DNA from: Candidatus Moraniibacteriota bacterium
GTDB lineage: Bacteria > Patescibacteriota > Minisyncoccia > Moranbacterales > JAPLXC01
DNA: 64,000 nucleotides
Reading direction: 5' to 3'
NCBI GenBank assembly: GCA_026396275.1
Contig: JAPLXC010000002.1
Coordinates: 74,922 to 138,921, forward strand
A model generated the notes under the pieces. That model was not told the origin of the DNA. It saw nothing but the letters and a program-made list of their open reading frames with translations, and searched no databases. This document shows positions 3,908 to 59,422 of the stretch, piece by piece (position 1 is the first letter of the stretch; each line of letters starts with the position of its first letter). The translations under genes were made by a program, and so were the position numbers.

Positions 3908-5464
3908 GTGATTAAAAAAATTCCAAAAGAAGTAATTGAAGTTTTGCGGAAACTTGAAGCCGCAGATTTTGAGGCCTATATCGTAGGCGGGTGCGTGCGG
4001 GATTTGATCGTGGAAAAGGAACCGAAAGATTGGGATGTAACGACTAATGCGAAACCAGAAGAAATTTTAAAATCATTTCCGGACAGTTTTTATGAAAATG
4101 AATTTGGAACAGTCGGCGTAAAAGTAAAGCCGTTTATTAAGAATGGAAACCCAGATCGCGATCATGATGTTATTGAAGTTACTACATACCGCATTGAATC
4201 AAAATATTCCGACAAGCGCCGGCCGGACAAAATCAGGTTTGCCAAGACGCTAAAGGAAGATTTGAGTCGAAGGGACTTTACGATTAACGCGATAGCGTTA
4301 AAAATAAAAAATCAAAATGCAAAAATCAAAAATACTGATTATGAAATTATCGATCCCTATGACGGGAAGAGTGATTTAAAAAATAGAACAATCCGCACGG
4401 TGGGCGATCCTAATGAGCGGTTTGACGAGGACGCGTTGCGGATGATGCGAGCAGTAAGGTTCCACGCGGAACTGGGCTATAAGATAGAAGAAAAAACCCT
4501 AAAAGCGATCAAGAAAAACGCCAAATATCTCAAACACATTACGCTGGAAAGAATTAAAGACGAACTGGCAAGAATTATTTTGTCTGATAGTCCTGCCCGC
4601 AATGCTGCGCCCGTCAGAAGCGTTGCATCTGCTACAGGCTGGCATAGCGTTGCAGGCGGGCCTGCTGAGGGAATTGACATGCTTCATCAAACAGGATTAT
4701 TAAATTATATTATTCCAGAACTTGAAAAAGGCGTGGGGATAAAACAAAATCGCCATCATATCTATACCATATATAAACACAGTATTTTATCCTTAAAACA
4801 TTGCCCTTCTGCCAAACTTGAAGTGCGATTGGCGGCGCTTCTTCACGATATTTCCAAGCCTCAAACCAAAAGAGGCGAAGGCGAATACGCAACTTTTTAT
4901 AACCATGATCATGTTGGAGCCAAAGTAGCCGAAAAAATTCTTACACGCCTGCGTTTTTCTAATGAAGTTATTCAAAAAGTAAAACTTCTCGTGGATAATC
5001 ACATGTTTTACTATAATCCCGATGAGGTCGGAGTAAGCTCTGTTAGAAAATTAATTCAAAAAGTTGGCTTGGAAAACATGAAAGATCTGATTGATCTTAG
5101 AATTTCCGACAGATTGGGCTCGGGCGTGCCGAAAGCCAAGCCGTATAAGCTTCGCCACTTGGAATATATGATTGAGAAAGTTTCTCAGGACGCCATTTCA
5201 GTGAAAATGTTGAAAATCAACGGCAATGATTTGATGAAAGAATTAAAACTAAAACCCGGACCGAAAATCGGAGCGATTCTTGACGTTTTGCTTTCTGAAG
5301 TGATTGAGGACGCTTCTAAAAATAATCGGGATTATTTGCTGTCCCGTGCCAAAGAGCTGGATAAAAAGGACTTGGAAAAGTTAAGAAACATGGCAAAGGT
5401 TAAGATCGAAGAGAAAAAAGAAGAGGAAGACAAGGAAATAAAAAATAAGTATTGGGTTAAATAG
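3908..5464 (+). CDS. cca: CCA-adding tRNA nucleotidyltransferase (poly(A) polymerase family) with HD domain
   Basis: Nucleotidyltransferase motif YIVGGCVRDLI; RAVRFHAELGY helix; HD motif LLHDISKP. The track ORF starts at 3869 inside tRNA-Arg, so the start is moved to an in-frame GTG at 3908; the start is uncertain. Contains a 69-bp GC-rich in-frame insert at 4593-4661. Confidence 0.8.
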   Translation: MIKKIPKEVIEVLRKLEAADFEAYIVGGCVRDLIVEKEPKDWDVTTNAKPEEILKSFPDSFYENEFGTVGVKVKPFIKNGNPDRDHDVIEVTTYRIESKYSDKRRPDKIRFAKTLKEDLSRRDFTINAIALKIKNQNAKIKNTDYEIIDPYDGKSDLKNRTIRTVGDPNERFDEDALRMMRAVRFHAELGYKIEEKTLKAIKKNAKYLKHITLERIKDELARIILSDSPARNAAPVRSVASATGWHSVAGGPAEGIDMLHQTGLLNYIIPELEKGVGIKQNRHHIYTIYKHSILSLKHCPSAKLEVRLAALLHDISKPQTKRGEGEYATFYNHDHVGAKVAEKILTRLRFSNEVIQKVKLLVDNHMFYYNPDEVGVSSVRKLIQKVGLENMKDLIDLRISDRLGSGVPKAKPYKLRHLEYMIEKVSQDAISVKMLKINGNDLMKELKLKPGPKIGAILDVLLSEVIEDASKNNRDYLLSRAKELDKKDLEKLRNMAKVKIEEKKEEEDKEIKNKYWVK

Positions 5465-5943: not shown

Positions 5944-7662
5944 ATGATTAAGTTAATAAATTACATTGAGGGACTCTCTTTTTGGAAAGTAGCCGTTATT
6001 CTCGCTACTGTCGGTCTGATACTTTACATTAATACTTTCACCAACCAGCTTTTCTGGGATGATTATGACAGCATTGTCAACAATGCCTATGTCAAAAGCT
6101 GGAATTATCTTCCCAACTACTTTTCAGAAAATCTTACCGCCGGATCGGGAATCCGCGACAATTACTGGCGTCCGCTTCTCCTTTTTTCTTTTTCGCTGGA
6201 TTACAAAATAGGAAAACTTACTCCCCTTTTTTATCATCTTCAGAGTTTATTCTGGCACATTCTCTCCGCTGTTTTGGCGTATTGGCTGATTTTTAAATTG
6301 TTTAAAAACAAACTGGCTTCACTTATCGCCGCGCTGATTTTTTTAGCCCATCCTCTGCAGGCGGAGGCAGTTACTTATGTCGCCGGCCGGGCCGATCCGA
6401 TGCATGCGGCTCTGATGCTGGCGGCATTCTTGTTTTTTTACAAGTATGTTGCCGAAAAAGCAGCTTTCAAGTTTTATTTCTGGTCAATTGTCTTTTTCTC
6501 GGCTGCGCTCCTAACTAAAGAACGGGCAATAGTACTGCCGGCTCTTCTGGTTTTGTATTACGTCACTCTTTATCCTGAACCTCTTCTTCAAAATTGGAAG
6601 AAAAAAATTATCAACATTTTACCCTACACCGGAATTGCCGTCCTCTATCTTATTTTAAGAATGACAGTTTTGCACTTCGCGGATGTTTTTGATCTGGGAC
6701 AGCCCAACAATATCGGAGCGCAGAATTGGTACGAAAAATTTCTGGCTTACTGCCAGGGCATAGCAGTGTATGCCGGACTTCTCTTTTGGCCGGCTAAACT
6801 TTATATGGAAAAATCAATCAGTATTCCGCCATCTTTTTGGAACTCTTACGTGATATCCGGTTTAATTATTGTAATTAGCTCATTGGCGGGAATAGTTTAT
6901 TCTTTCAGAAGGAAAAAAATTTTTGCTTTTGGAATGCTTTGGTTTTGGGTCGCTCTTTCTCCCTCTTTTCACATTTATCCCATTCAGGGGCTTCTTTACG
7001 AACACTGGCTGTATTTTCCCATGATTGGATTACTGGCCGTATTCGTGTTGCCGCTGGCGACAATGATCCGGTATACTGAATTTAATTCCTTTCGGATATT
7101 TCTGGTGGCACTACTTACTGTCGGAATCCTGGCTTTAGGTATTCGAACAATTGTCCGCAACCGCGACTGGAACAATCCGATAAGGTTTTACGAAAAAAAT
7201 GTTTCGCTGGGCGGATTGTCTGCCCGGGTATACACTAACTTAGGCATGGCTTACGATGGCGCGGGAAGGCACGAAGAGGCAATCGGAACTTATCAAAAAG
7301 CCATTGCACTGGACAATCGGCTGTTTCAGCCCTGGTACGACACGGGCAACGCTTATTGGGATATGCAAAAATTGGATGAAGCGCTAGCGGCTTATCAAAA
7401 GTCCGTTGAACTCAATCCTTATTTTTTGCCGGCTTATTATAATTTGGCGGGAATTTATGCCGGCTGTAATGATTTCGACAATGCTGCTGGAGTTTTGCAG
7501 AAGGCACTAGCGGTTGATTCCAATAAATCAAGGACATATTATAATTTAGGAATTGTTTACTATCAAAAAGGAGATAAGACAGAGGCAAAAAAATATTTTA
7601 CTGAGGCCTTACGGCTGGAGCCGAGTAATGTTGATTTATTGAATCTGGTTAATGGCTTATAG
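5944..7662 (+). CDS. membrane glycosyltransferase family 39 (PMT/ArnT-like) N-terminal domain fused to C-terminal TPR repeats
   Basis: About 11 TM segments in the N-terminal 400 aa, then three or four TPR units (AYDGAGRHEEAIGTYQKAIALD...; AYQKSVELNP...; YYNLGIVYYQKGDKTEAKKYFTEALRLEP). Confidence 0.5.
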   Translation: MIKLINYIEGLSFWKVAVILATVGLILYINTFTNQLFWDDYDSIVNNAYVKSWNYLPNYFSENLTAGSGIRDNYWRPLLLFSFSLDYKIGKLTPLFYHLQSLFWHILSAVLAYWLIFKLFKNKLASLIAALIFLAHPLQAEAVTYVAGRADPMHAALMLAAFLFFYKYVAEKAAFKFYFWSIVFFSAALLTKERAIVLPALLVLYYVTLYPEPLLQNWKKKIINILPYTGIAVLYLILRMTVLHFADVFDLGQPNNIGAQNWYEKFLAYCQGIAVYAGLLFWPAKLYMEKSISIPPSFWNSYVISGLIIVISSLAGIVYSFRRKKIFAFGMLWFWVALSPSFHIYPIQGLLYEHWLYFPMIGLLAVFVLPLATMIRYTEFNSFRIFLVALLTVGILALGIRTIVRNRDWNNPIRFYEKNVSLGGLSARVYTNLGMAYDGAGRHEEAIGTYQKAIALDNRLFQPWYDTGNAYWDMQKLDEALAAYQKSVELNPYFLPAYYNLAGIYAGCNDFDNAAGVLQKALAVDSNKSRTYYNLGIVYYQKGDKTEAKKYFTEALRLEPSNVDLLNLVNGL

Positions 7663-7831: not shown

Positions 7832-7994
7832 CAAAATAAAAGACGCATCCCGCCTAGGCGGGACTCCCGCAAGAAATTGAGAGTTCGAATCCCTGCCCGT
7901 TGATTTTTAGCGGGGTCTCCCAAGGCACGAAATAAGCTGGACTAATGCAAAAATTAAGTTATAATAATGAAATCAATATTTAAAAGAAATAAAA

Positions 7995-9876: not shown

Positions 9877-10034
9877 TTTTTAGCGCCCAAGACGCAAAGC
9901 GGCATATTAACTGTTCACTTTACTAAGATTTGCGGATGTGGTGCCTGCCTGCTTGTCTCGCTAAAGCTATGGAGAAGCGGGCGGTCAGGGAACCCGGTAT
10001 ATTTACCCCGCATCAATTTCTGTGTTCTGAAGAA

Positions 10035-10118
10035 AGGGGACGTGGCGGAATTGGTATACGCGATAGGTTGAGGACCTATGCTCGCAAGAGCGTGAGGGTT
10101 CAAGTCCCTCCGTCCCCA
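10035..10118 (+). tRNA. tRNA-Leu(GAG)
   Basis: Acceptor ggggacg/cgtcccc. Anticodon arm atagg-ttGAGga-cctat. Long variable arm gctcgcaagagcgt. T-arm gaggg-ttcaagt-ccctc. Confidence 0.8.
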
Positions 10119-10282
10119 CACAGGAATTGGTGCGGGGCGCATATGCCCCAGTACTAAGTCCAGGGTGGACTAGTACGGGGTAAACTTGAGGTGCATGTGG
10201 GAGTAATCTCCCTAGAGGTTTTTACCCCGTATTTGGAGCGAAGCGACATAGTTCGGGGCAAATCCTCTCATCCGCACTTGAA

Positions 10283-10470
10283 GGATCCTTAGCTCAGTTG
10301 GTAGAGCGCTTCGCTTATTCACCCCGCACCAAAATTAAGGGCAATTAGCTCAGTTGGCTAGAGCGCTTCGTTTACACCGAAGATGTCGTAGGTTCGAGTC
10401 CTACATTGCCCACTAGAATTTGGTGCGGGGCAAACCGAAGATGTCGTAGGTTCGAGTCCTACAGGATCCA
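10283..10470 (+). pseudogene. interrupted tRNA-like gene 'X' (Val-like body). Its 5' half (10283-10320) and 3' half (10436-10470) have complementary acceptor strands ggatcct/aggatcc and are separated by a 115-nt insert that contains a complete tRNA-Val.
   Basis: 5' half: acceptor, D-arm gctcagttggtagagc, stem cttcg, loop cttattc. 3' half: cgaag, atgtc, T-arm gtagg-ttcgagt-cctac, aggatcc. The insert is bounded by the inverted repeat ccccgcaccaaaatt / aatttggtgcgggg. Confidence 0.55.
10339..10412 (+). tRNA. tRNA-Val(TAC), nested inside the split tRNA-like gene X
   Basis: Acceptor gggcaat/attgccc. Anticodon arm cttcg-ttTACac-cgaag. T-arm gtagg-ttcgagt-cctac. Confidence 0.85.
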
Positions 10471-10493
10471 CTAATAATGTTTTTTAAAATTTT

Positions 10494-10565
10494 GCCAGGC
10501 TAGCTCAGTGGTAGAGCGAAGGACTGAAAATCCTTGCGTCCCCAGTTCGATTCTGGGGCCTGGCA
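10494..10565 (+). tRNA. tRNA-Phe(GAA)
   Basis: Acceptor gccaggc/gcctggc. Anticodon arm aagga-ctGAAaa-tcctt. T-arm cccag-ttcgatt-ctggg. Confidence 0.85.
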
Positions 10566-10736
10566 CAATAGGCAAAATTTAGTATGGGGCAAGCTGAAAA
10601 CTTATGTCGGCAGTTTTTACCCCGTCGAATGATTGGGGCGATCCTGTCCCCAAGCACAACGCCAAGCATTCCACTATAACTAATATGATTAAGGAATGCT
10701 AATTACAGTAATGTTACTACTAAGTATTAGTAGTTA

Positions 10737-10809
10737 GGGTCCGTAGCTCAGCGGTTAGAGCGGCCGGCTCATAACCGGTTGGTCGCAAGTTCGAATCTTG
10801 CCGGACCCA
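10737..10809 (+). tRNA. tRNA-Met(CAT), elongator or tRNA-Ile2 (lysidine) type. Not initiator-like (G1:C72 pair).
   Basis: Acceptor gggtccg/cggaccc. Anticodon arm gccgg-ctCATaa-ccggt. T-arm gcaag-ttcgaat-cttgc. Confidence 0.75.
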
Positions 10810-10855
10810 CATAAAAAATTCAAAATTTAAAAATCAAAATGCAAAACTTAAGAAA

Positions 10856-10926
10856 GCGGAATTAGTATAGTGGTAGTACGCCACCTTGCCAAGGTGATGG
10901 CGCCGGTTCGATTCCGGTATTCCGCT
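10856..10926 (+). tRNA. tRNA-Gly(GCC)
   Basis: Acceptor gcggaat/attccgc. Anticodon loop ttGCCaa. T-arm gccgg-ttcgatt-ccggt. Confidence 0.8.
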
Positions 10927-11022
10927 CAATTTTAGGTTCGCTGCAGCACCGCTGAAGGGTGCTAAGCGCCCGGCATTCTTTAGCAGTACCGGGCGATTCC
11001 GCTCACTCGCTCTAAAAGAAAA

Positions 11023-11053
11023 ATTCCTCAAATGGTGAGGAATTTTTCTTTTT
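11023..11053 (+). terminator. Rho-independent terminator
   Basis: aattcctca-aatgg-tgaggaatt followed by TTTCTTTTT. Confidence 0.65.
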
Positions 11054-11100
11054 GTGTTAAAATGAGTCAAAACGTAACTTAGTGCGGTTAAACCTTTAAT

Positions 11101-11175
11101 TGCGACCGTAGTACAGTGGCAGTATACGACCTTCCCAAGGTTGAGACGTGGGTTCCCTGCCTGCCATTGCTCCAA
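11101..11175 (+). pseudogene. degenerate tRNA-Gly(CCC)-like copy
   Basis: Has a Gly-like D-arm gtacagtggcagtat and anticodon arm cgacc-ttCCCaa-ggttg, but the T-arm (gtgggttccctgcctg) and the acceptor 3' strand are degenerate. It aligns to the 3' half of the neighbouring split Gly gene. Confidence 0.4.
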
Positions 11176-11177
11176 AT

Positions 11178-11425
11178 GCGGATGTAGTATAGTGGTAGTG
11201 CCCCAGTACTAAACTTGCCTTACGACAAATTAATACGGGGCAGGCATAACCTTCCCAAGCCCCGCACTAAATCTGCACCGCACTTTGTGCGAGAATAGTA
11301 TAGTGGCATTACACTTGCTTCCCAAGCAAGAAACGCGGGTTCAATTCCCGTTTCTCGCTCCGTTATTTGTGCAGATTTTAGTGCGGGGCAAGGTTGAAGC
11401 GTGGGTTCGATTCCCATCATCCGCT
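11178..11425 (+). pseudogene. interrupted tRNA-Gly(CCC)-like gene. The 5' part (11178-11259) and 3' part (11389-11425) have complementary acceptor strands gcggatg/catccgc. It hosts a complete tRNA-Gly(CCC) and also carries an extra 45-nt hairpin insert after the D-arm.
   Basis: 5' part: gcggatg-ta-gtatagtggtagtg ... taacc-ttCCCaa-g. 3' part: caaggttg-aagc-gtggg-ttcgatt-cccat-catccgc-t. The insert is bounded by ccccgcactaaatctgcac / gtgcagattttagtgcgggg, with a 4-bp direct repeat caag at both junctions. Confidence 0.55.
11289..11359 (+). tRNA. tRNA-Gly(CCC), nested inside the split Gly(CCC)-like gene
   Basis: Acceptor gcgagaa/ttctcgc. Anticodon arm cttgc-ttCCCaa-gcaag. T-arm gcggg-ttcaatt-cccgt. 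Confidence 0.85.
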
Positions 11426-11531
11426 CAGGCATTTGGCAGGCGGGGATTCTCATATCCCGCTCAAAGATTCTCTGAAAAATTGGCTTATTTCAACCCCGAA
11501 TATTTTCCTAGAATAAGCCAAATTTAGACCA

Positions 11532-15038: not shown

Positions 15039-15305
15039 AAATATTCCCCCGCGAATCTACAAATTTTGCTACAAATCTACAGATACTATGATTGTATTAT
15101 ACATTATTTCTGATTTATTCGTACGTTCGTACAGTTTAGTAATTCGCAGAGATTACACTATTTCCCATCCGTTTTCCGCCCCAGCACCATTTTTCAATAA
15201 AGTTATTTCTTAATAATAAGTTTATTGGACAAAACGGCTTCGCCTTTGATTTTTCATAATTGATAATCTGTGCTGAAAATGGTGCGGGGTAAATCTCCAC
15301 AATTT

Positions 15306-19103: not shown

Positions 19104-19346
19104 AACGTTTTTGATAACTAGAGCTTATTTCACGTTAGCATTTATTTCCCCTTGTGTAAAGAAAAAAAGGCAAATGGCGGTTTTTCTAGAACCCGTAAGA
19201 AAGCGGAGGGTACAGGAGTTGAACCCGTAATCCGCTAGGCGGGAAACCGCATTTTCCGCCAAAGGTGGACCAGCCGTTGGCTGGCGAGTTATATAAGCGA
19301 AAGAGGTGAGATTTTCACCCCGCACCTATAAAAATTTTATAAATTT

Positions 19347-19580
19347 GCGGCGGGAGAGGGATTCGAACCCCCGGTACCCTTTCGGATACACCTGATTTCG
19401 AGTTCCCGCACAAAGCGGAAGGAGTGAGATTCGAACTCACGGTCCCGTTTCCGAGACACCGCATTTCGAGTGCGGCCCATTCAACCACTCTGGCATCCTT
19501 CCACTATATGCGGGACGCAGCAGGCCTACGTGTCCCGCACCAATTTTTGGTGCGGGATTCAACCACTCTGGCATCCCGCC
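19347..19580 (-). pseudogene. interrupted tRNA-Ser(CGA)-like outer gene. The 5' piece (19557-19580; acceptor ggcggga plus D-arm) and the 3' piece (19347-19413; anticodon loop, variable arm, T-arm, acceptor tcccgcc) flank the intact tRNA-Ser(CGA).
   Basis: Acceptor strands ggcggga/tcccgcc are complementary. The D-arm is identical to that of the inner Ser gene. The CCCGCACC/GGTGCGGG inverted repeat flanks the insert. Confidence 0.5.
19416..19502 (-). tRNA. tRNA-Ser(CGA)
   Basis: The reverse complement folds as: acceptor ggaagga/tccttcc, D-arm ccagagtggttgaatgg, anticodon arm ccgca-ctCGAaa-tgcgg, long variable arm gtctcggaaacgggacc, T-arm gtgag-ttcgaat-ctcac. Confidence 0.8.
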
Positions 19581-19599
19581 AAAATTTTGGTGCGGGGCG

Positions 19600-19800
19600 G
19601 GCTCACAAAGGGATTGCTCCCTTACGGCTTTTTCTCGACCCCGTAAGAAAGCGAAGGGTATAAGAGTTGAACCTGTGAGGGGATTGCTCCCCAACCGCAT
19701 TTCGAGTGCGGCGCATTAGACCACTCTGCCAACCCCCCGCTTCTCTACGGGGCGAGGCCGCTTCCTTTATTGAATCTCGGCCACTCTTCCAATTATATAA
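19600..19800 (-). repeat. array of further degenerate tRNA-Ser-like fragments (minus strand)
   Basis: A second ccgca-ctCGAaa-tgcgg anticodon arm at 19698-19715; duplicated variable-arm hairpins ggggagcaatcccc / gggagcaatccc; an unusual T-loop ttcaact; and a class-II-like 5' fragment ggaagag-tg-gccgagattc. Confidence 0.4.
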
Positions 19801-21997: not shown

Positions 21998-22609
21998 ATG
22001 AATTTTAAAAAATATTATTTAATAGCGACTGCCAGTGTTATTCTCGCCTTAATTTTTCCTTTTGTTTCTTTAGCCCAATGCAAGGCGGAAGGAAATGTAA
22101 TAGAGTTTTGCAATCCTCTCCGGTTCAACACGGTGCAGGAAGTTTTAGCGAGCTTAATGGCTTCCCTTCAAGGAGTAATTGTAGTCATCTCTATTATTTT
22201 CATAATTATCGGGGCGGTGTTTTACATTACTTCGGGCGGGAGCGAAGATCGGATAAAAACCGCCAAGAAAGCCATTCTTGCCTCAATGATCGGACTAGCT
22301 ATTGGAATTGCGGCACCGACATTCCTAAAGGAAATATCAAGCATCTTAGGATGGACAAATCAGCCACCGGAGTTACAACAGGCGAAAAGCATTGCCGAAA
22401 TAGCTCTTAGTGTCCTGAATTTTCTTCTGGGAATTGTCGGGGCTCTGGCGCTCATTATGATGATAATTGGGGGAATTATGTATCTCACCGCAGCGGGAAA
22501 CGAGGACCGAATTGATGCAGGCAAAAAGATTTTCAAGTTTTCCCTAATTGGAATTGCCGTGGCGCTGGCATCGCTGGTTATTATCAGACAAATTGCCTTG
22601 TTTTTTTAA
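21998..22609 (+). CDS. T4SS-type pilin (TrbC/VirB2-like) with two tandem pilin domains
   Basis: Signal peptide, then two copies of the hydrophobic-YxTxGG(S/N)EDRI(x)AKK-hydrophobic module (FYITSGGSEDRIKTAKKAILASMIGLAIGI and MYLTAAGNEDRIDAGKKIFKFSLIGIAVAL). Confidence 0.6.
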   Translation: MNFKKYYLIATASVILALIFPFVSLAQCKAEGNVIEFCNPLRFNTVQEVLASLMASLQGVIVVISIIFIIIGAVFYITSGGSEDRIKTAKKAILASMIGLAIGIAAPTFLKEISSILGWTNQPPELQQAKSIAEIALSVLNFLLGIVGALALIMMIIGGIMYLTAAGNEDRIDAGKKIFKFSLIGIAVALASLVIIRQIALFF

Positions 22610-22641
22610 TCAATATTTTTTAACGCAAAGAATTTAGACCA

Positions 22642-23097
22642 ATGCTATTCAATGTTCCCCAATTTATTGATGTGGAAGACAAAGTGGCCGGTCCCTTCAC
22701 GGCCAAGCAGCTTCTTTGGATGTTTGGAATGGGCGCGGTACTGCTAGTGCTCTGGAACATACTTGAAAAACCGGCTTTTTTTGTTTCCGCTGTTCCGATA
22801 GTTGCTCTTTTTATGGCTTTGGCTTTTTATCGCCCCTATAACCAGCCACTAATAAGATTTATTCTTTTTTCTTTACTGTTCCTTTTCCGCCCCAAGGTGT
22901 ATGTGTGGAAAAGAATTCCTCATAAAATAGCATCTCAGGCAGGAAAGAAAAAAACGCCTGCTACGATGGAAAAAGAAAAAAAGAAAATGCTCAATCCGGA
23001 AAATATAGAAGCGTTAGCGCGAGTGCTGGACAGCGAGGGCAGGGAACGGAATGAAAAAATTATGGAGATAATAAAGAGAAATCAAAAATCAAAATGA
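22642..23097 (+). CDS. VirB3/PrgI-like small membrane protein of the T4SS-like system
   Basis: 151 aa with two adjacent TM helices after an N-terminal ...FIDVEDKVAGPFTAKQLLWM... segment. Sits immediately upstream of the VirB4 ORFs. Confidence 0.4.
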   Translation: MLFNVPQFIDVEDKVAGPFTAKQLLWMFGMGAVLLVLWNILEKPAFFVSAVPIVALFMALAFYRPYNQPLIRFILFSLLFLFRPKVYVWKRIPHKIASQAGKKKTPATMEKEKKKMLNPENIEALARVLDSEGRERNEKIMEIIKRNQKSK

Positions 23098-23185
23098 AAA
23101 AATCAAGATTCTAAATCAAAATTAAAAAATTTTTAAGTTCTAAGGTCTCTTAATTTCAATTTTTTATCTTTTTGCATTTTGATAT

Positions 23186-23890
23186 TTGATTTTTAATATT
23201 GCTATGGAGTTACTACATTCGAAAAAATTAACCGCCGGGAGTGGAGCCAGCACGCAAAAGTACGTGGACGTTGAAGAGATTAAAAACGGAGTTATCGTTC
23301 TTAAAAACGGGTCTTTGAGGGCCATTCTTTTGGTCTCTTCCATAAATTTCGAGCTTAAGTCCACGGAAGAGCAGGACGCAATCGTCGGCCAATATCAAAA
23401 CTTCCTTAATTCTCTGGATTTCCCTGTTCAGATTATTGTCAGTTCCCGACGGCTCAATATTGGTCCCTATCTGGATTTTTTAGGGGATAAAGAAAGTCAG
23501 CAGACGAATGAATTATTGCGGCTCCAGATTTCCGAATACATAAACTTCATTAAAAATCTCACCGAGGTCTCCAATATAATGTCCAAGTTTTTCTATATCG
23601 TGATCCCCTTTTCTCCAGTGGAAACAAAAGAAGGAGGGCCTTTCCGGAAACTCACTTCAATGTTCAACCCTCGACAGTCAATACTGCGCAAGCGAGAACT
23701 TTTTGAGACATACGAAAACCAGCTGTGGCAAAGAGTGGATCACGTGGTTGCCGGGCTGAGCGGAACAGGAGTAAAAGTTACTCCTCTGGGTACTGAAGAG
23801 GTAATTGAGCTGCTGTATAATTCCTATAATCCAACAATCTATACCAACTCAATCGTCCGGGAGATTGAAAATATTGAACTAGGAAAATAA
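23186..23890 (+). CDS. VirB4/TrbE-like N-terminal domain, encoded as a separate ORF
   Basis: 234 aa ending 4 nt before the ATPase ORF. Together the two ORFs reach the normal VirB4 length (~840 aa). Own RBS (AGGAAA) precedes the downstream ATG. Confidence 0.5.
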   Translation: MIFNIAMELLHSKKLTAGSGASTQKYVDVEEIKNGVIVLKNGSLRAILLVSSINFELKSTEEQDAIVGQYQNFLNSLDFPVQIIVSSRRLNIGPYLDFLGDKESQQTNELLRLQISEYINFIKNLTEVSNIMSKFFYIVIPFSPVETKEGGPFRKLTSMFNPRQSILRKRELFETYENQLWQRVDHVVAGLSGTGVKVTPLGTEEVIELLYNSYNPTIYTNSIVREIENIELGK

Positions 23891-23894
23891 AATT

Positions 23895-25706
23895 ATGTTT
23901 GATCTGGGAAAAAATAAAAAAGAAAAAGACACACTGCTGGAAAGCGAAGAACTTTATCAAGCAGGAGAGGCAACTATTAAGGACTTGATTGCTCCGGCGG
24001 CGGTGAAGATTAATGCCAACTATATCCAAATTGGCGAGACCTACACCCGAACACTTTTTGTCATTACCTACCCCCGTTATCTTCACACTAGCTGGTTTTC
24101 GCCGATTATCAACATTGATTTTCCGCTGGACATCGCCATGTTTATTCATCCGGTTGATACCAACGAAATCCTGAAAACTTTGCGCAAATCCACCACCCGG
24201 GTGCAGTCAGAAATTCACTTGGAGGAAGAAGCCGGAAAAATTCGCGACCCGATTTTGGAAACCGCCCTTCGGGATATTGAGGACTTGCGCGACAAGCTTC
24301 AGCAAGGGACTGAAAAATTCTTTCGATTCGGTCTTTACATGACCGTTTACGGGAAGAGTTATGATGAAGTAAGCAAGATCTGCCAGCAAATTGAGGCCAT
24401 TTTAGAAGCGCAACTGGTTTACGTGAAGCCGGCGGTACTTAAAACCGAACAGGCCTTTTCTTCCACGCTGCCGCTGGCTAACGACGAGCTGGATGTCGGG
24501 AATAATCTCAATACCTCCCCTCTTTCCACCACTTTTCCTTTCGTTTCTTCCGACCTTTCCTCCAATGAAGGAATTCTTTACGGCATCAACCGGCACAACA
24601 ATAGTTTAATTCTTTTTGACCGGTTCAATATGGAGAATGCTAATATGGTGATTTTCGCCAAATCCGGAGCCGGGAAAAGTTATTCCGTGAAACTGGAGGT
24701 GCTGCGCTCGATGATGCTGGGGACAAACGTGATGATTATTGACCCGGAAAACGAATATAAATATCTGTGCGAAACGGTCGGCGGAACCTTTGTTAAAATT
24801 TCTTTGGACTCCCATTTTCACCTCAATCCCTTTGATCTTCCTAAAATCAAAGAAGACGAAGATCCGGAAGGAGTTATCCGCAATACCATCGCTAATATTA
24901 TCGGTCTTCTTCATCTCATGCTCGGATCAGTCACGCCGGAAGAGGATTCAATTTTGGATCGAGCCATTCGAGAGACCTACGCGGTGCGCGACATTACTCC
25001 CCAGAGCAACTTCCAGTCGTTTACTTCCAATTCTTTCCCGACGATGTCCGATCTTTATGAAGTGCTGCGCAATATGGAGGGAGCGGAATCGCTGGCGATG
25101 CGTCTTGAAAAATACACCGAAGGAATTTTTTCCGGCTTTCTCAATAATCCCACCAACGTGAATATTGACAACCAGCTGGTAGTGTTCAACATTCGCGATT
25201 TGGAAGAGGAACTTCGCCCAGTGGCGATGTACGTTGTTTTACAATTCATCTGGAATGAGATGCGTTCGGAGCTAAAGAAGCGTTTAGTAGTAGTGGATGA
25301 GGCCTGGGTAATGATGCAAAATGAAGACGCCGCTTCTTTTATGTTTGGCATTGCCAAAAGGTGCCGCAAGTACTACACGGGACTTACCACTATTACTCAA
25401 GACATTACTGACTTTTTGGCTTCCCGCTACGGAAAGCCGATTGTCACCAACTCCTCGATTCAGTTGCTTCTCCGCCAGTCGCCAGCGGCCATTGAAACAG
25501 TAGTGGAGACGTTTTACCTTACCGATCAGGAGAAATTTCTGCTTTTGGAAAGCAACGTCGGGGAAGGAATATTTTTTGCCGGCACCAAGCATGTGGCGAT
25601 TAAAATCATCGCTTCCTATAGTGAGGATCAGATTATTACTTCCGATCCACGCCAGCTGCTGGAAATAGAGCAAGCCAAAAAAGAATTTGGCGAGGAAAAA
25701 ATGTAG
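23895..25706 (+). CDS. virB4: VirB4/TrbE/CagE-family T4SS ATPase (C-terminal ATPase portion)
   Basis: Walker A IFAKSGAGKSYSVK, Walker B LVVVDEAWVMMQNEDAA, and the TTITQDITDF motif. Confidence 0.85.
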   Translation: MFDLGKNKKEKDTLLESEELYQAGEATIKDLIAPAAVKINANYIQIGETYTRTLFVITYPRYLHTSWFSPIINIDFPLDIAMFIHPVDTNEILKTLRKSTTRVQSEIHLEEEAGKIRDPILETALRDIEDLRDKLQQGTEKFFRFGLYMTVYGKSYDEVSKICQQIEAILEAQLVYVKPAVLKTEQAFSSTLPLANDELDVGNNLNTSPLSTTFPFVSSDLSSNEGILYGINRHNNSLILFDRFNMENANMVIFAKSGAGKSYSVKLEVLRSMMLGTNVMIIDPENEYKYLCETVGGTFVKISLDSHFHLNPFDLPKIKEDEDPEGVIRNTIANIIGLLHLMLGSVTPEEDSILDRAIRETYAVRDITPQSNFQSFTSNSFPTMSDLYEVLRNMEGAESLAMRLEKYTEGIFSGFLNNPTNVNIDNQLVVFNIRDLEEELRPVAMYVVLQFIWNEMRSELKKRLVVVDEAWVMMQNEDAASFMFGIAKRCRKYYTGLTTITQDITDFLASRYGKPIVTNSSIQLLLRQSPAAIETVVETFYLTDQEKFLLLESNVGEGIFFAGTKHVAIKIIASYSEDQIITSDPRQLLEIEQAKKEFGEEKM

Positions 25707-36741: not shown

Positions 36742-39700
36742 ATGCTCAAGGAAAAATGCGAAAAAATTTACGGTAAAATAAAAAATTGGGCGATCATTGT
36801 CCGCGATTCTAGCCGGCGCCACTTCCCGCTGGTTTTGGCGATTATTTTTTTGACTCCGGCTTTTATTCTACTTTTTCTTTTTGTTAATTCGCAACTACAT
36901 AAGCAGTCTTCTTACGCGGCCACTTTTACTGGAAAAGTCAAAGTTTCCAAGCAGACAACGACTTTGTCAACCAGCGGGGACTGGTATACTTCCATGGCTC
37001 ATTCCGGCGACGGAGTCAACGGTGACGCGGAATCGGGCACTTTCAATCCAATTCATCCGGGCCAGGGAGCGGGAACCGAGCCGGGAGCTGGCGGAATCGC
37101 TATGGGCCATGTGGCCATGGGAGCAACAACCACTTACGCGGCCGCCCAGTTCATCGGTTTTAAACCAAGCGCCACAGGAAACTTGGACGGGGTCCAGCTG
37201 GTTTTTGAAAATTTGACTTCAACCAATCTTTCCAATGTGGACTTGGTGGTTGAATTTGTTCGTTTTCCCTCAGCGACGTATAGCGGGGGTTGGACCAATT
37301 ATGTGACCGGCACCCAAGGCGCTTATACATATCCTTCCGACACGCAAGTTTTGCGCCGGACGGTCTGGCAGTTCAATCAGGAGCTTTCCGGGGAAAACGC
37401 GGCGCCGGGTCAGTTCGGGCGGGCAACTTTTGACTTTCGCTTTGATCCACCGGTAGCAGTAACAACCGGCGGAGGGGCCGGCGATCATTACGGCATCCGG
37501 ATTATCAACATGGGCGCCAGCACTCCGGTTTTTGGCACTTGGGCGCAAGCGCCTCAGTCCAACGGCTTCCCTTCAATCAACGGCACGATCCGGACAATCG
37601 GCTTCAATGATCTTGATACAACTAACGCCCCAACCGTTACTATGCCAGTGGTTTTGGGAGGAAATACGGTTTTGACAACCGGCGCGATGGTGGCGGCTAA
37701 TTCGGTTCCGGGAATCGGATTGCCGACAGTGCGCAGAACGGAAAACGAACACTGGACAGCCACTTATTCTTCAGCCAATGGAAATTGGACAGTTGCTGGA
37801 TCGGTTTCCGGAACACAAACCAATAAATTAACTACATCCACTAATGGCGGAACCGGCGCCAGCTGGCTCAATGACAGCGCTGTCTATACCACTCTGACCT
37901 CGGACATTACCGGCACAACCAACAAACTTTGCGTGGATTCAATCACCGGTTTTGCGGCCAACCAATATATTGATGTTTGGGACAGCGATACGGCTTCGGC
38001 TCAATTTACTATTCTTTCAGTAAATTCTTCAGACGGCAGTTGTCCGTTAAGCGGACCGTCCATTACTACAACCGCCAACCTGACTAACACCAATAACTAC
38101 ACCCAATCCAAAAACGCCACCGTAGCCAGAACCACCTGGAAGCAAAGAATTATTCAGGGAGCAATCCAGGTCTTTACCCAGGATATGCCCTCAACCACTA
38201 AAATCTGCGTGGCCGATTCAAGCAGATTCAGCGCGCCGACAGCCGGAACAGCCAATAACATCGTGGTTTGGGACAATAACACAACAACAATCAACACCAA
38301 CCGCGTCGTATCCACTTCGCAGGCGGATGGAAGCTGTACCAGCAATAACAGCATTACAATATCAACAGCGATTACTGCCGGAACTTATACTACCGCTCAA
38401 AGCGCTTATGTGGCGGAATATTCGGCTCATCTTTCCAATTCGGCCGCACCGTCCAATGGAGCGGTTTTACGCTGGACGACTTTTAATCATCCGCAAAATC
38501 CAACCAATTCAACTTTGCTGGCGCGGACTACTTCAGTTAATTTGGCTTACGCTAAATCACAGTCGCCGGCCACTTCCAGCACCAACTATCCTTATCTATC
38601 CAACCGCCATATTTTCTTTGTGGCTTATGGCGACGCGGACACGACCGCGCCGGCTGACGGTGATATTGTTATCGTCGGCAACGGCAAATCCGATCCTGAT
38701 TCCGGCGATTCATCCAATTTGACCAGCGACATCAACTGGGCGACCAAGGAATCGCATGTGGTGACGATTGACCGCAGTTGGGACGCGCCGATGGCATATA
38801 GCGGAACCAACGCAGCGGCGGTGGGCGACGGCGCCGGTTCTCGTGCCAACTTTGCCGCCTGGAGCCAGAACGGCGGCTGGGTATCAGCGCTGGTTACTCC
38901 CAGTTCGCAATTGGGGATAGACAACAGCACCAACAAGCATTACCGGATTACCATTCCCGGAAAAATTGTGGTTGACTCGGACGCATCGGTGGCGCTTGGG
39001 AAATCCGGAGCAGCCATTCCGGAAAGTTCTGGCCACGACATATATTTTGACACGGTGAGTCCCGCGGCTTCAACGCTTTTGACTGTTGACTCGGCGGCTA
39101 CTACGACTTTGACCGTAGCTTCCACCACTAATTTTATGCCCGGAGACACGATTGTCTTGGACGATAACAATTCCGTTCCGATAACGAGAATTATCGCGGC
39201 GGTTGAAAATTCTACCACCATAACTTTAACCGCGGCGGCGGTAACCGGCTATACCGTGGCACAGAGCGCATTTATCGCCAAAGGTCCGACCACTGAACTG
39301 CCAACTGGTTCTGATAGAAGAGCCGGGATTTATACAATGACCGGCCTTAACGGAGCATCCACGCCGGCGCAAAGCAATACCCGTACCGGAAGAGTGGCGC
39401 TTTATGCCGACGGTTCGGAAGATTTCAGAACTTCCAAAAGTGATTTGGCAGTGGATGTTGACGGCAATATTGACACTGGATATTTAGGAAATAATTCAAC
39501 TGATGCCGGCAATACCTGGGTGGATGTGGAAGATGATGTAGTTGGCAACTGGCAGCCGCTGGATCAGGTGGCTGTTGCCGGAGGGACCAATCAGCTGGCG
39601 GACAATAATTATTCCTCAACTGAGTTGGGCGGGACGGATGACGCCAACCAGATGCCGGTTTGGACAGGAGCCACAACCAAGGTTGACGCCGGAGCCGGGG

Positions 39701-51978: not shown

Positions 51979-52977
51979 TCAAGCCCTGAGAAGTTTTGTT
52001 CTTCTTCTCCTCGCATGAAACGCCTGATGCACTTCTTTGAGCTGTTGATTGGTTACATGGGTGTAAATTTGCGTTGTCGTAATAGAAGAATGCCCCAGCA
52101 TCGCCTGGACGCTTCTGATATCGGCACCGCTGGCCAGAAGATCAGTCGCAAAACTGTGGCGCAAAGTGTGGGGATGAACGTCTTTAACAAGACCGGCTTT
52201 GGCAGCGTAAAACTTCACAATTCTTTGGACGGAGCGGGGAGTAATTCTTAGAGAAGAGTCGCTTTTTTTATTGTCATTCCGGACTTGATCCGGAATCTCT
52301 TTAGATCCTGAATCAAGTTCAGGATGACATTTGCGATGGATTTTTTTGGCGATTCGCACGAATAGCGCCGGATCAATATCCATTCTTTTATTTAAATATT
52401 TTTCCAATGCCTTTTTAGCAGTGTCGGAGACAAAAACAATCCGGATTTTTCCTCCTTTACCCCGAACGCTGAATTCCTGTTTGGCCAAATTTATCTGGTC
52501 GCGATTGATGTTCACCAGTTCCGAAACGCGAAGTCCGGCTGAAAAAAGAAGTTCCAAAATCGCCCGGTCGCGCAGCGTTTTCAAATCATCTCCGGAAGCA
52601 CTTTCCAGGAGGCGGTCCAGTTCATCGGCTTCCAGAAACTCAACGGCCTGAACCGGATTTTTTCCCACTTCTATTTTTTCCGGCTGAAGCGCCTCAATGT
52701 CGCGTTTGGCCAGATATTTCAAAAAGTTGCGAAGAGCAATGACATGGTAATTCTGGGTGATTTTTTTAAGTTCTTTACCCTTCTTGTCTTGGTAGCGGTT
52801 AAGACGCAAACGGTATTTTCTCACCAGATCATCCGTGATTTCCCCGGGGCTGGTAACTCCGGCCCAATTCAAAAACCGCTCGAGATAATGCCGGTAGTTT
52901 TCAATCGTTTTAGGGGACCGGCCGCGCTCAATTTCGAGATATTCCAGGAAATCTTTGAGAAGACCGTTTAAATCCAT
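51979..52977 (-). CDS. xerC: tyrosine site-specific recombinase, XerC/XerD-like, carrying an in-frame MITE insertion
   Basis: Core-binding N-domain; catalytic R...HPHTLRHSFAT...LGHSSITTTQIYTHV (Tyr). An extra segment ...CHPELDSGSKEIPDQVRNDNKKSDS... corresponds to MITE copy 4. Confidence 0.8.
   Translation of the reverse strand: MDLNGLLKDFLEYLEIERGRSPKTIENYRHYLERFLNWAGVTSPGEITDDLVRKYRLRLNRYQDKKGKELKKITQNYHVIALRNFLKYLAKRDIEALQPEKIEVGKNPVQAVEFLEADELDRLLESASGDDLKTLRDRAILELLFSAGLRVSELVNINRDQINLAKQEFSVRGKGGKIRIVFVSDTAKKALEKYLNKRMDIDPALFVRIAKKIHRKCHPELDSGSKEIPDQVRNDNKKSDSSLRITPRSVQRIVKFYAAKAGLVKDVHPHTLRHSFATDLLASGADIRSVQAMLGHSSITTTQIYTHVTNQQLKEVHQAFHARRRRTKLLRA
52272..52329. mobile_element. MITE-like element (TGTCATYC...GRATGACA family), copy 4, in-frame inside xerC/D
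   Basis: tgtcattccggacttgatccggaatc...cctgaatcaagttcaggatgaca. Confidence 0.55.
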
Positions 52978-58566: not shown

Positions 58567-58950
58567 ATGCCAAATCAAATCCAAAACCCAAAGGCAAAAA
58601 AGAGTTATGACTTGGAAGAGAGAACGGCAAAATTTGGAGAAAACGTGATTGGATTTGTCCGCACCCTGCCAAAAGATCCGGTAAATGTTCCCTTGATAAA
58701 CCAGGCAGTTAGATCAGCTACAAGCATTGGAGCTAATTATATGGAAGCAGATGGCGCGGAATCAGGGAAAGATTTTAGACATAAAATCGCGATTTGTAAG
58801 AAAGAAGCCAAAGAATCAATGCACTGGCTAAGAATGATTGCCAAAGCCAATGCCGGAAAAAAAGACGAGTGCAGAAAACTTTGGAAGGAAGCTCATGAAT
58901 TAGCCCTCATCTTTTCAGCTATTTTACGGACAGCTGGTAAGAAAAAGTGA
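58567..58950 (+). CDS. four-helix-bundle protein (23S rRNA IVS-encoded protein family)
   Basis: SIGANYMEADGAESGKDFRHKIAICKKEAKESMHWLRMIA, the signature of the TIGR02436-like family. Confidence 0.65.
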   Translation: MPNQIQNPKAKKSYDLEERTAKFGENVIGFVRTLPKDPVNVPLINQAVRSATSIGANYMEADGAESGKDFRHKIAICKKEAKESMHWLRMIAKANAGKKDECRKLWKEAHELALIFSAILRTAGKKK

Positions 58951-59015
58951 TTTTAATATTTGAGCATTTGAAATTGATTTGGAACAATTTGAACTTTGGT
59001 ATTTGGATTTACAAG

Positions 59016-59342: not shown

Positions 59343-59422
59343 TGAGTTAAGTTTTTTCAGCCCGTTGGCTCGTGAACTCGTTAACTGAAAAATAAATAAT
59401 AAAGATAGAAAGGCGGTGAGTT

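Follow-up and report, generated by a model that had tools for sequence, protein, structure and literature searches.

Nested tRNA genes in a Candidatus Moranbacteria bacterium: a probable palindrome-bounded tRNA cassette in the anticodon loop of tRNA-Val(TAC)

A short palindrome-bounded cassette carrying a tRNA gene appears to have hit the resident tRNA-Val(TAC) gene of a Candidatus Moranbacteria (CPR) bacterium and to have supplied the replacement for it, leaving the outer halves as a split pseudogene; a probability of about 0.75 was assigned to this interpretation. The locus (positions 10283-10470) lies in a 64,000-nt stretch of chromosomal DNA, referred to here as the window, which also contains the housekeeping genes rplS, infB, rbfA, ksgA, and a uvrD-like gene. 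A phage origin was rejected in view of these genes and because the phage collection showed generic tRNA similarity only. An assembly artefact was rejected as well, since shared repeats are at most 40 nt long and assemblies produced independently in many studies show this architecture too.

The initial annotation had described an intact tRNA-Val(TAC) between two halves of a second Val-like tRNA that are separated by 115 nt, and this layout was borne out (Table 1). It had also proposed a 15-bp inverted repeat around the inner gene. The repeat does flank the inner gene, and its perfect stretch is 12 bp (10322-10333 with 10419-10430), reaching 14-15 bp with a one-base bulge. When the inner tRNA was masked, ARAGORN in intron mode called a tRNA at 10283-10471 with a 115-nt intron, whereas the unmasked sequence gave the inner Val gene alone. 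After removal of 115 nt, the outer sequence formed a full cloverleaf that scored 113-121 at any choice of junction, which is the range of real tRNAs. The whole 188-nt stretch folded into two nested cloverleaves and the repeat helix (-73.1 kcal/mol, z = -5.0), with an energy that none of 200 shuffles equalled. All four helices of the outer copy are still perfect, which suggests that the insertion was recent or that the helices are being maintained.

Table 1. Positions of the nested tRNA genes, inserted cassettes, and repeats in the window.
Feature	Position	Strand	Description
Outer tRNA-Val, 5' half	10283..10317	+	Acceptor strand GGATCCT, D-arm, anticodon stem CTTCG (10309-10313), loop bases CTTA
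Inserted cassette	10318..10434	+	TTCA, left repeat, tRNA-Val(TAC), right repeat, CAAA
Cassette left end TTCA	10318-10321	+	
Left inverted repeat CCCCGCACCAAAATT	10322-10336	+	
Inner tRNA-Val(TAC), acceptor GGGCAAT	10339..10412	+	ARAGORN call; Rfam RF00005, 72.1 bits
Right inverted repeat AATTTGGTGCGGGG	10417-10430	+	
Cassette right end CAAA	10431-10434	+	
Outer tRNA-Val, 3' half	10435..10470	+	C, CGAAG, variable loop, T-arm, AGGATCC, discriminator A
Decayed outer tRNA-Leu(GAG), GCGGATG...CATCCGC-A	9932..10276	+	Encloses intact Leu(GAG) at 10036-10119
Repeats of the Leu(GAG) nest	10006-10025 and 10118-10137	+	
Empty hairpins in outer Leu(GAG)	10146-10180; 10221-10258	+	The latter splits the T-loop
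Outer tRNA-Phe(GAA) remnant	10571..10656	+	Right repeat GGCAAAATTTAGTATGGGG + CAAG, loop CTGAAAA, acceptor CCCAAGC-A
Three-level tRNA-Gly(CCC) nest	11102..11478	+	Outermost copy from 11102, T-loop interrupted; middle copy 11178-11426
Interior of the Gly(CCC) nest	11205-11247; 11260-11392; 11289-11361	+	Hairpin of the middle copy; cassette; intact Gly
tRNA-Ser(CGA) nest, three to four levels	19205..19790	-	Intact Ser 19415-19502 in cassette 19404-19520
Outer Ser copy S2	about 19350-19583	-	Encloses the cassette; 30 nt removed at 19527-19556 include a palindrome of the D-loop
Repeat-family copy outside any tRNA	15180..15289	-	CCCCAGCACCATTTTC ... GAAAATGGTGCGGGG then TAAA; intergenic

The anticodon loop of the outer gene had been read as CTTATTC, entirely of tRNA origin. 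This reading was abandoned, as the inserted element usually carries TTCA as an extension of its left end. The junction of TTCA with CCCC also occurs in Leu D-arms and in other Val loops, and the end motifs TTCA and CAA[AG] are common to other cassettes. The UAU anticodon suggested for the outer Val is unsupported for the same reason. UAU (Ile) and CAA or UAA (Leu) anticodons were all rejected for the outer copy, because the ARAGORN assignment simply follows an arbitrary junction and TTCA and CAA[AG] are the ends of the element.

The inner and outer Val genes share an identical run of 30 nt in the 3' half and agree at 24 of 25 positions in the 5' half, whereas six of the seven acceptor pairs differ, in agreement with the earlier description of like bodies and unlike acceptor stems. 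Under the cassette interpretation, this combination has to be explained separately, by assuming that the nested copies underwent gene conversion or that they have a recombinant origin. The order rplS-Leu(GAG)-Val(TAC)-Phe-Met-Gly is conserved across 30+ relatives, in each of which one Val(TAC) is called at this position. The closest relatives share only about 65% identity in RluD, so that these comparisons are not within a species, and exact-protein matching of the L19 and RluD of the window retrieved no contig. In two relatives (L032 and L034), the GGATCCT Val allele is uninterrupted at the same rplS-Leu-Val-Phe position, and the outer 5' half in the window has the acceptor stem and D-loop of these intact genes. 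The GGGCAAT allele is uninterrupted in another relative (L002), and in L021 it is a disrupted outer copy with a GCACGCT allele inside. Judged by their sequence, the outer halves represent the Val allele that formerly occupied the locus. The initial proposal of an inverted-repeat-bounded tRNA cassette in a resident anticodon loop was thus supported by the uninterrupted outer allele of relatives, by a cassette family that recurs in many metagenomes and at numerous tRNA genes, and by a polymorphism between two contigs.

The initial annotation had also considered an intron-like or split-tRNA arrangement, in which the outer halves would be expressed and then joined, or re-associated through the 14-bp repeat helix, to form a second tRNA after RNase P/Z had freed the inner one, in the manner of archaeal split or multi-intron tRNAs. 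The repeat would indeed hold the halves together, the outer Val, Gly, and Ser copies keep perfect cloverleaf helices, and junctions in Gly, Ser, Phe (L007), and Ile (L136) excise to the exact canonical loop. However, no cut at or near the foot of the Val helix leads to the native 7-nt loop YTTACAC; the leftover loop is either CTTATTCA plus C (9 nt) or CTTA plus C (5 nt). No bulge-helix-bulge can be formed from the 8 nt (5') and 5 nt (3') that separate the anticodon stem from the repeat helix. In the first orientation, the 4-nt stretches of the central helix do not pair, and in the other, the 5 nt cannot hold the 3-nt bulge and 4-nt helix strand, for which 7 nt are needed. No Rfam group I intron or ribozyme was found at the locus, and a search with RF00028 was negative both for the whole window (gathering threshold) and for 9900-11500 (E<=1), although group I introns were detected, as a positive control, in tRNA-Phe at the same cluster of five relatives (L005, L010, L021, L032, and L035; 75-86 bits). 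No splicing endonuclease (EndA) or RNA ligase was matched by Pfam among the 46 ORFs of the window. Moreover, the outer product would only repeat the anticodon already given by the inner gene, every nest examined encloses an intact cognate tRNA, the ends of the cassette are reversed in polarity in seven cases, and other outer copies are clearly dead or decaying. A functional interrupted gene is very unlikely on this evidence.

Outer copies often cannot regain a 7-nt anticodon loop; they also collect hairpins and lose halves. The outer Leu(GAG) contains three inserts, and removal of TTTACCCCG..TTCGGGG restores AGAGG-TTCAAAT-CCTCT, as read from the sequence; equivalent Leu nests occur in four relatives (L002, L019, L026, and L029). 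The outer Phe(GAA) remnant has lost its whole 5' half, and its T-loop is split by a hairpin at 10616-10638. More complete homologous Phe nests were found in L002, L003, L004, L007, and L029, and in L004 the acceptor strands of the outer copy no longer pair. When the hairpin and the cassette were removed, the middle Gly(CCC) copy and the outer Ser were called by ARAGORN as Gly(CCC) (score 120.2) and Ser(CGA) (score 119.6), both being full cloverleaves with the same anticodon as the inner gene. The outermost Gly copy gave a sub-threshold Rfam tRNA match (11102-11171, 27.3 bits). Copy S2 of the Ser nest is itself bounded by repeats (19318-19328 and 19587-19597), and the nest includes a second Ser(CGA) at 19651-19738, plus older fragments. 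The intergenic repeat copy encloses about 75 nt of AT-rich sequence. Within the window, the end motifs of the element were about six-fold denser at <=300 nt from tRNAs than elsewhere, and long CCCC..GGGG hairpins were almost confined to tRNA clusters; the motifs were counted because a permissive search for hairpins (8-bp stems with wobble pairs) produced too much noise. Taken by their sequence, the outer copies look like relics, and not like split or intron-containing genes.

A metagenome scan with the left repeat, together with the relatives, yielded 39 distinct cassettes of 14 amino-acid types, including Ala, Arg, Asn, Asp, Gly, Ile, Leu, Lys, Phe, Pro, Ser, and Val. The cassettes are about 105-137 nt long (median about 111 nt; 109 nt for the core of the Val cassette, 10322-10430, measured foot to foot) and have the ends CCCCGCAC..GTGCGGGG. 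Their arms, CCCCGCAC[CT]AAA.. / ..TTT[AG]GTGCGGGG, form terminal inverted repeats in the 39 cassettes and are also found in solo palindromes. The basic unit is a palindrome of 25-26 nt, CCCCGCACCAAAATTTTGGTGCGGGG, with a complete tRNA gene at its centre in cassettes that carry cargo. Most cassettes lie within loops of disrupted tRNAs of the cognate type. They are inserted in the D-loop or D-arm, at positions 31/32 to 37/38, or at 55/56 in the T-loop. The flanks resembled the cargo of the same cassette above the 99th percentile of shuffles in 27 of 39 cases, and in 24 of the 39 the cognate type was the best flank match among all types. Judged from the TTCA/TTTA end and the CAAG end, 25 cassettes have forward and 7 have reverse polarity, with another 6 unclear. 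Empty hairpins likewise occur in both orientations, which fits a DNA element rather than an RNA intron. The junctions are not uniform, with some excising cleanly and others losing 2-4 target bases, and no target-site duplication of fixed length, that is, no regular direct repeat, was found at the cassette junctions. HUH-type elements also lack duplications, and the missing duplication therefore does not exclude mobility of the cassettes. None of the cassettes encodes an enzyme of its own.

Direct comparison of two contigs suggests that the cassette moves as DNA, because they differ by exactly one copy: the aligned flanks of L108 and L092 are near-identical, and an additional cassette (about 110 nt) in L092 interrupts the anticodon loop of a Pro(TGG) gene that is intact in L108. 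Similarly, an Ala(CGC) allele that is intact in L166 is interrupted and replaced in L083. As an alternative, only the short palindrome might be mobile, or it might be a repair scar, with each nest made in place as a local repair product. The palindrome would break at its centre, and the gap would be filled with a copy of an intact homologous allele of the tRNA, templated by a sister chromosome or by DNA that the cell had acquired from a relative, with the AT-rich palindrome centre priming by microhomology. Such repair would make the cargo always cognate without extra assumptions, and it agrees with the existence of solo 25-26-nt palindromes, with the exact placement of the cargo tRNA at the palindrome centre, with the identical bodies of the two Val copies in the window, and with local palindromisation scars in outer copies of L028 and L003. 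The small GIY-YIG genes present at several such tRNA loci in relatives could supply the breaks. In most nests, however, the inner and outer alleles differ strongly (in acceptor stems, and in T-stems in L021), and the innermost Pro of L092 is an allele distinct from both copies that enclose it. Furthermore, the arms CCCCGCAC[CT]AAAATTT and a leader of 16-17 nt are nearly alike around many tRNA types in unrelated contigs, which is better explained by spread of the whole unit. Local repair is therefore regarded as an unlikely origin of the nests.

Among the 46 ORFs of the window, the search for a candidate mover gave neither a transposase nor an HUH or GIY-YIG nuclease; of other mobilising enzymes, a single candidate came up, a Xer-like tyrosine recombinase (51979-52977). 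No real long autonomous version of the element, with repeat arms 0.6-9 kb apart, was detected. One match of this kind, in L148, was discarded as fortuitous; the genome is high in GC, and the match contains no tRNA. In the viral sequences of IMG/VR, the repeat had 24 lone matches but not one paired cassette, which again speaks against a phage origin. The GIY-YIG genes of the relatives allow another origin to be considered, in which a free-standing nuclease gene and a cleavage-resistant tRNA allele invaded the resident tRNA gene through double-strand-break repair, after which loss of the nuclease gene left the tRNA alone. In L003 and L028, GIY-YIG ORFs (Pfam E = 2e-18 to 3e-11) separate a disrupted Val copy from the intact one, and in L002 the outer Phe has one inside it; four more are located immediately upstream of tRNA genes, and phage T4 SegB, a GIY-YIG homing enzyme in a tRNA cluster, provides a precedent (PMC2330249). 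Against a homing relic, the window has no GIY-YIG ORF, and the 115-nt insert is too small for a remnant of one. The GIY-YIG loci themselves lack CCCCGCAC repeats and show partial tandem duplications instead of clean nests, and only 1 of the 120 metagenome loci retrieved with the repeat had a GIY-YIG ORF. Homing is accordingly a highly improbable source of the cassettes.

In the mechanism proposed for the cassette, a unit with a GGGCAAT tRNA-Val(TAC) would have entered the anticodon loop of the resident GGATCCT tRNA-Val(TAC) and destroyed this gene, and the cell would have survived because the cassette supplied the same tRNA. The outer Val halves would then be the fossil of the displaced allele. 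The inner Val would be the functional gene, presumably co-transcribed with the tRNA cluster next to rplS and then freed by RNase P and the ordinary enzymes of 3'-end maturation. The target may be the single-stranded D, anticodon, and T loops that are exposed when the DNA of a tRNA gene is unpaired. A viability filter probably acts afterwards: the cell would not survive a cassette in some other essential tRNA gene, nor an empty palindrome in a live one, so that only cognate insertions would persist. Such a filter would explain why cargo and target are of the same type and why the intact inner genes are free of hairpins, and also why empty hairpins and further rounds of nesting are found in dead outer copies. 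There is a slightly better than even chance that the cassettes constitute an unrecognised class of selfish element, which uses the loops of its own cognate tRNA as its site and delivers a replacement tRNA. In that case, mobility would need either an enzyme acting on hairpin loops or host recombination and repair, neither of which has been described in this role.

Several known systems share some of these properties. MITEs, REPINs (REP doublets moved by RAYT), and Rickettsia palindromic elements are short (about 25-140 nt) inverted-repeat hairpins that have many copies and no mobility genes of their own, sometimes lie inside genes, and vary in presence among relatives. The cassettes resemble MITEs and REPINs in their repeats, in coding for no mobility function, and in their presence/absence polymorphism, and about 110 nt is the size of a REPIN. 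In contrast to these elements, the interior of the cassette is a complete and apparently functional tRNA gene, the loops of cognate tRNAs are hit, nests are three to four levels deep, and regular duplication of the target is absent. Neither a DDE transposase nor a RAYT or IS200-type gene occurs among the 46 ORFs of the window. Integrative elements (phages, ICEs, and pNOB8-type plasmids) also target the anticodon or T stem-loop, spare the host by supplying the displaced tRNA sequence, and leave a fragment behind, and an archaeal tRNA gene disrupted by an integrative element has been described (PMC3293823). However, these elements are kilobases long, encode an integrase, and bring in no more than the 3' portion of the tRNA, so that one hybrid gene is rebuilt, whereas the cassette is about 110 nt long, has no integrase (the 115-nt insert holds only the tRNA), carries the whole tRNA, and is flanked by both old halves. 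GIY-YIG homing of the T4 SegB type (PMC2330249) is comparable as a selfish replacement of an allele in a tRNA region, and GIY-YIG genes are present at the loci of relatives, but the cassette contains no nuclease gene and the outcome is a nest rather than gene conversion.

The split, permuted, and multi-intron tRNAs of archaea (Nanoarchaeum, Thermoproteales, and Caldiarchaeum) have helix-forming inserts at the D, anticodon, and T regions, and these inserts, like the cassettes, appear to move between tRNA genes. On the other hand, EndA cuts archaeal bulge-helix-bulge introns out of the RNA, ligation joins the exons, and it is the interrupted gene that functions. The cassettes occur in a bacterial host, form no bulge-helix-bulge, and enclose an intact copy, while the interrupted copies decay. 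Group I introns of Patescibacteria tRNAs share the phylum and the anticodon-loop site with the Val insert, but they are self-splicing ribozymes of 200-300 nt that match RF00028, whereas the insert is 115 nt long, has no such match, and contains a tRNA. Both these introns and the disrupted tRNAs of archaea have been reported in the literature. No description of nested bacterial tRNA genes was found in the literature searched, which left most subscription journals outside its coverage.

If the cassette interpretation is correct, a mobile element would have a new way of residing in an essential gene, namely to bring a whole spare copy, as opposed to splicing (introns and inteins) or partial rebuilding (integrases), and this strategy would be possible because tRNA genes are tiny. 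The nests also bear on annotation, since they give spurious calls of intron-containing, pseudo-, or duplicated tRNAs and can hide or mislabel tRNA genes of CPR bacteria, which is relevant to claims that CPR genomes lack certain tRNAs. The conserved 26-nt palindrome and the defined target class, tRNA loops, offer a starting point for finding the activity that moves the cassettes. tRNA alleles would be replaced rapidly and recurrently in bacteria with some of the smallest known genomes, with the nested relics keeping the order of events. Successive invasions would stack old alleles one around another, and from each nest the turnover of tRNA alleles in CPR bacteria could be read like a fossil record.

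The nested arrangement of tRNA genes at 10283-10470 of the window was confirmed. The initial annotation had described Val-like halves split around an insert, and these were present in the sequence; the intact tRNA-Val(TAC) within the insert was called by both ARAGORN and Rfam (72.1 bits), and its flanking inverted repeat comprised 12 perfect base pairs, or 14-15 bp if one bulge is allowed. Masking the inner gene led ARAGORN in intron mode to report a tRNA at 10283-10471 with a 115-nt intron, and deletion of these 115 nt gave an outer gene with a score of 113-121, on par with real tRNAs. The 188-nt region folds into two nested cloverleaves linked via the repeat helix (-73.1 kcal/mol; z = -5.0), an energy equaled by none of 200 shuffles. 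The inner and outer genes have identical bodies and differ in six of the seven acceptor pairs, for which gene conversion between the nested copies would be the simplest account.

Table. Coordinates of tRNA nests, group I introns, and small GIY-YIG ORFs (window positions, except for L numbers, which denote contigs of relatives or metagenomes)
Feature	Position	Details
Outer Val, 5' half	starts 10283	GGATCCT acceptor strand, D-arm, anticodon stem CTTCG, then CTTA + TTCA (sequence reading)
Left repeat	10322-10336	CCCCGCACCAAAATT
Inner complete tRNA-Val(TAC)	10339-10412	ARAGORN and Rfam
Right repeat	10417-10430	AATTTGGTGCGGGG, then CAAA and C
Outer Val, 3' half	discriminator A at 10470	CGAAG, variable loop, T-arm, AGGATCC
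Gly(CCC) nest	11178-11426	Gly(CCC) cloverleaf (score 120.2) after removal of 43-nt hairpin (11205-11247) and 133-nt cassette (11260-11392)
Gly(CCC), third, outermost copy	begins 11102	
Ser(CGA) nest		Minus strand; Ser(CGA) (score 119.6) after removal of 30 nt with palindromic hairpin and 117-nt cassette
Decayed outer Leu(GAG)	9932-10276	Surrounds intact Leu(GAG)
Outer Phe, 3' remnant	10571-10656	5' half gone
Group I introns	L005 2276-2530; L010 6805-7010; L021 2261-2507; L032 6804-7102; L035 6949-7189	Rfam RF00028
Small GIY-YIG ORFs	L003 6564-6854; L028 6678-6944; L002 3562-3756 and 746-1024; L027 7318-7605; L012 8758-9258; L008 3076-3414	58-90 aa

Two explanations had been proposed: a repeat-bounded tRNA cassette inserted in a resident tRNA gene, and an intron-like or split tRNA. 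The first was supported by an alignment of Val genes taken from the orthologous position in relatives and by the presence or absence of a cassette between contigs L108 and L092. The uninterrupted Val gene of L032 and L034 has the outer acceptor (GGATCCT/AGGATCC) and outer D-loop, and that of L002 has the inner acceptor (GGGCAAT/ATTGCCC). The GGGCAAT allele is disrupted in L021, where the split falls at this same loop position with an identical junction (TTATTCA/CCCCG ... CGGGG/CAAGC) and the broken allele surrounds a third one, GCACGCT. The normal gene in some genomes is therefore the broken shell in others. Val alleles supplant each other serially.

The second explanation was not supported, as no native loop is restored, bulge-helix-bulge geometry and a group I intron are absent, and the element occurs in both polarities. 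Intact Val alleles have the loop YTTACAC, and no cut near the helix of the outer gene (CTTA + TTCA ... CAAA + C) can yield a native Val loop. Since TTCA and CAA[AG] recur at junctions in further tRNA types and positions, they are part of the element, and two Val loop bases were therefore lost; such a two-base loss at insertion is directly visible in the L108/L092 pair. In the clean-excision cases (Gly and Ser), the outer product would merely repeat the inner gene's anticodon. The cassettes are not introns or split genes of the archaeal type (for archaeal disrupted tRNA genes, see for example PMC3293823), and the outer Val junctions lack bulge-helix-bulge geometry. Group I introns, which are known in Patescibacteria tRNAs (PMC13011429), were likewise rejected, as neither these nor small ribozymes had an Rfam match at the Val locus; Rfam does find group I introns in tRNA-Phe of relatives. 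These introns (75-86 bits) occupy the anticodon loop of tRNA-Phe(GAA) in the same cluster of several relatives, the L010 host being the tRNA after Phe, probably Met, and ARAGORN indicated similar inserts of 240-255 nt in L008, L017, L023, and L026. Their presence fits the recent Patescibacteria report.

Once the ordinary tRNAs had been masked, a second ARAGORN run in intron mode revealed further nests. The restored outer Ser(CGA) copy is bounded by the same repeat family and set among older Ser fragments. One hairpin splits the T-loop of the outer Leu(GAG) exactly, and its deletion gives AGAGG-TTCAAAT-CCTCT. More complete versions of the Phe nest were found in L002, L003, L004, L007, and L029. 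L029 also contains a three-level Leu(GAG) nest (6485-6900), the middle copy of which (GCAGGCG...CGCCTGC-A-CCA) encodes its own CCA end, and another cassette at the same locus (4839-4962) with Leu(TAG) as cargo. A second tRNA-Ser(CGA) in the window (19651-19738, minus strand; Rfam just 41.7 bits) may be chimeric or a copy in decay; its acceptor 5' strand, GCGGGGG, forms two G-U wobbles with the called 3' strand and only one with a downstream Ser 3' fragment (~19205-19260). Downstream of Gly(GCC), an apparent 3' remnant of an older Gly(GCC) (10927-10996; GGTTCG ... CGATTCCGCTCA) is interrupted by two hairpins.

The cassettes form a family. In metagenomes, a scan with CCCCGCACYAAAATTT yielded 120 stretches; a partner arm lay within 600 nt in at least 24 of them, and nearly all of those with paired arms contain a tRNA between the arms. 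All sources pooled, 39 distinct cassettes of 105-137 nt (median, 111.5 nt) carry 14 amino-acid types, including Ala, Arg, Asn, Asp, Gly, Ile, Leu, Lys, Phe, Pro, Ser, and Val. In 27 of the 39, similarity between the flanks and the cargo that they enclose exceeded the 99th percentile for shuffled flanks, and the cognate tRNA type was the best flank match in 24, both being underestimates because extra hairpins displace outer fragments past the 48-60 nt scored. A 25-26-nt perfect palindrome, CCCCGCACCAAAATTTTGGTGCGGGG, appears to be the basic unit; solo copies are present in several contigs and also in the window's outer Ser, within its D-loop. Cargo cassettes look like this palindrome with a tRNA at its center. 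Within 300 nt of the window's tRNA genes, the density of end motifs is about six times that in the rest of the window, and one copy without a tRNA is intergenic (15180-15289). Insertion junctions are clean or have lost 2-4 nt, the base 5' of the insertion is A in nearly all cases, and no regular target duplication was found at the cassette junctions examined. The middle Gly copy is bounded by palindromes of a second family (CCCTGCCTGCC... / ...GGCAGGCGGGG; 11156-11170 and 11434-11446), which also occurs in the D-region of the outer Leu (9943-9990) and, in L092 (~2360-2380), takes the place of a hairpin present at that site in L108. In L003, L004, and L029, outer Phe copies have a third type (TCCCGCC..GGCGGGA) in the D-loop, with stem changes that preserve pairing. 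A 16-bp hairpin directly after tRNA-Leu(TAG) (7865-7915; TCCCGCAAGAAATTGA / TTGATTTTTAGCGGGG) may be a terminator or a further member of these families.

The cassettes move at the DNA level. The aligned flanks of L108 and L092 are nearly identical. Pro(TGG) in L108 is intact (loop TTTGGGA) and itself nested within an older Pro; in L092, the same gene has an extra ~110-nt cassette in that loop, carrying a different Pro(TGG) allele, which is the one that ARAGORN now calls. For Ala(CGC), the same relation holds between L166 and L083. The element ends differ slightly, with TTCA or TTTA outside one foot and CAAG outside the opposite foot, and relative to the cargo 25 cassettes have forward and 7 have reverse polarity, with 6 unclear. 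Empty hairpins, too, are found in either orientation. The orientation of an intron removed from RNA would be fixed. An element in a tRNA loop would be tolerated only if the same tRNA is supplied or the target gene is already dead. Such a viability filter, itself inferred, predicts the observed pattern, namely intact inner genes free of hairpins and outer copies with one to three, at every stage of decay. A serious rival is local repair, in which an intact allele would be copied into a broken palindrome, thus creating the nest. The reading of a cassette within a relic is well supported, the outer Val gene being best read as the relic, and the mechanism of cassette movement is one that we infer.

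Among the 46 window ORFs, no transposase, HUH nuclease, or GIY-YIG protein was found, the sole recombination enzyme being a Xer-like tyrosine recombinase (51979-52977, minus strand). A search for a long autonomous version of the element found none, including in viral contigs. In relatives, GIY-YIG nuclease genes are located at these tRNA loci, between broken and intact Val (L003 and L028) or inside the outer Phe (L002), without palindrome arms, and look like the product of a process related to, but separate from, the cassettes (for T4 SegB, see PMC2330249). Pfam PF01541 was confirmed in three of the small GIY-YIG ORFs, which lie directly upstream of tRNA genes, several between broken and intact copies of one tRNA. 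The L003 insertion is flanked by a ~35-nt duplication of the broken gene, and the stop codon of the L028 ORF falls within the tRNA.

The Val locus lies in a tRNA cluster on the chromosome of a CPR bacterium and is not phage DNA. Its neighbors encode a CCA-adding enzyme, RluD-type pseudouridine synthase, ribosomal protein L19 (56-70% identity to L19 of Candidatus Moranbacteria and other Patescibacteria genomes), IF-2, RbfA, KsgA, and a UvrD-like helicase. At NCBI, the RluD of the window is recorded as a protein from a Moranbacteria MAG. The nearest other RluD is just 65% identical; thus, there is no close relative for comparison. More than 30 relatives keep the gene order rplS-Leu(GAG)-Val(TAC)-Phe(GAA)-Met-Gly(GCC), and in every one of them a single Val(TAC) is called at that site. 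The window also contains two type IV secretion-like gene groups (21998-25706 and 58947-60818; several T4SS pilin-domain ORFs, a PrgI-like protein, and a TraG/VirB4-like ATPase) that could be relevant to inter-strain DNA exchange, a 4152-aa ORF (36742-49200, plus strand) in which Pfam matched only C-terminal bacterial SH3 domains and which probably encodes a giant surface protein of a kind common in CPR genomes, and an ORF of the 23S rRNA intervening-sequence protein family (58567-58950, plus strand; PF05635).

In size, hairpin form, and copy number, the cassettes are similar to MITEs, REPINs, and Rickettsia palindromic elements, and in their choice of tRNA stem-loops and compensation of damage, to tRNA-targeting integrative elements. 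None of these families as defined includes them: they lack an integrase and target duplication, and their interior is a whole tRNA gene that targets its cognate gene. No report of nested bacterial tRNA genes was found in the searchable literature, the coverage of which is incomplete, so that an earlier description is possible. The Val locus is one case of a tRNA-replacement cassette that is widespread in CPR bacteria and apparently undescribed.
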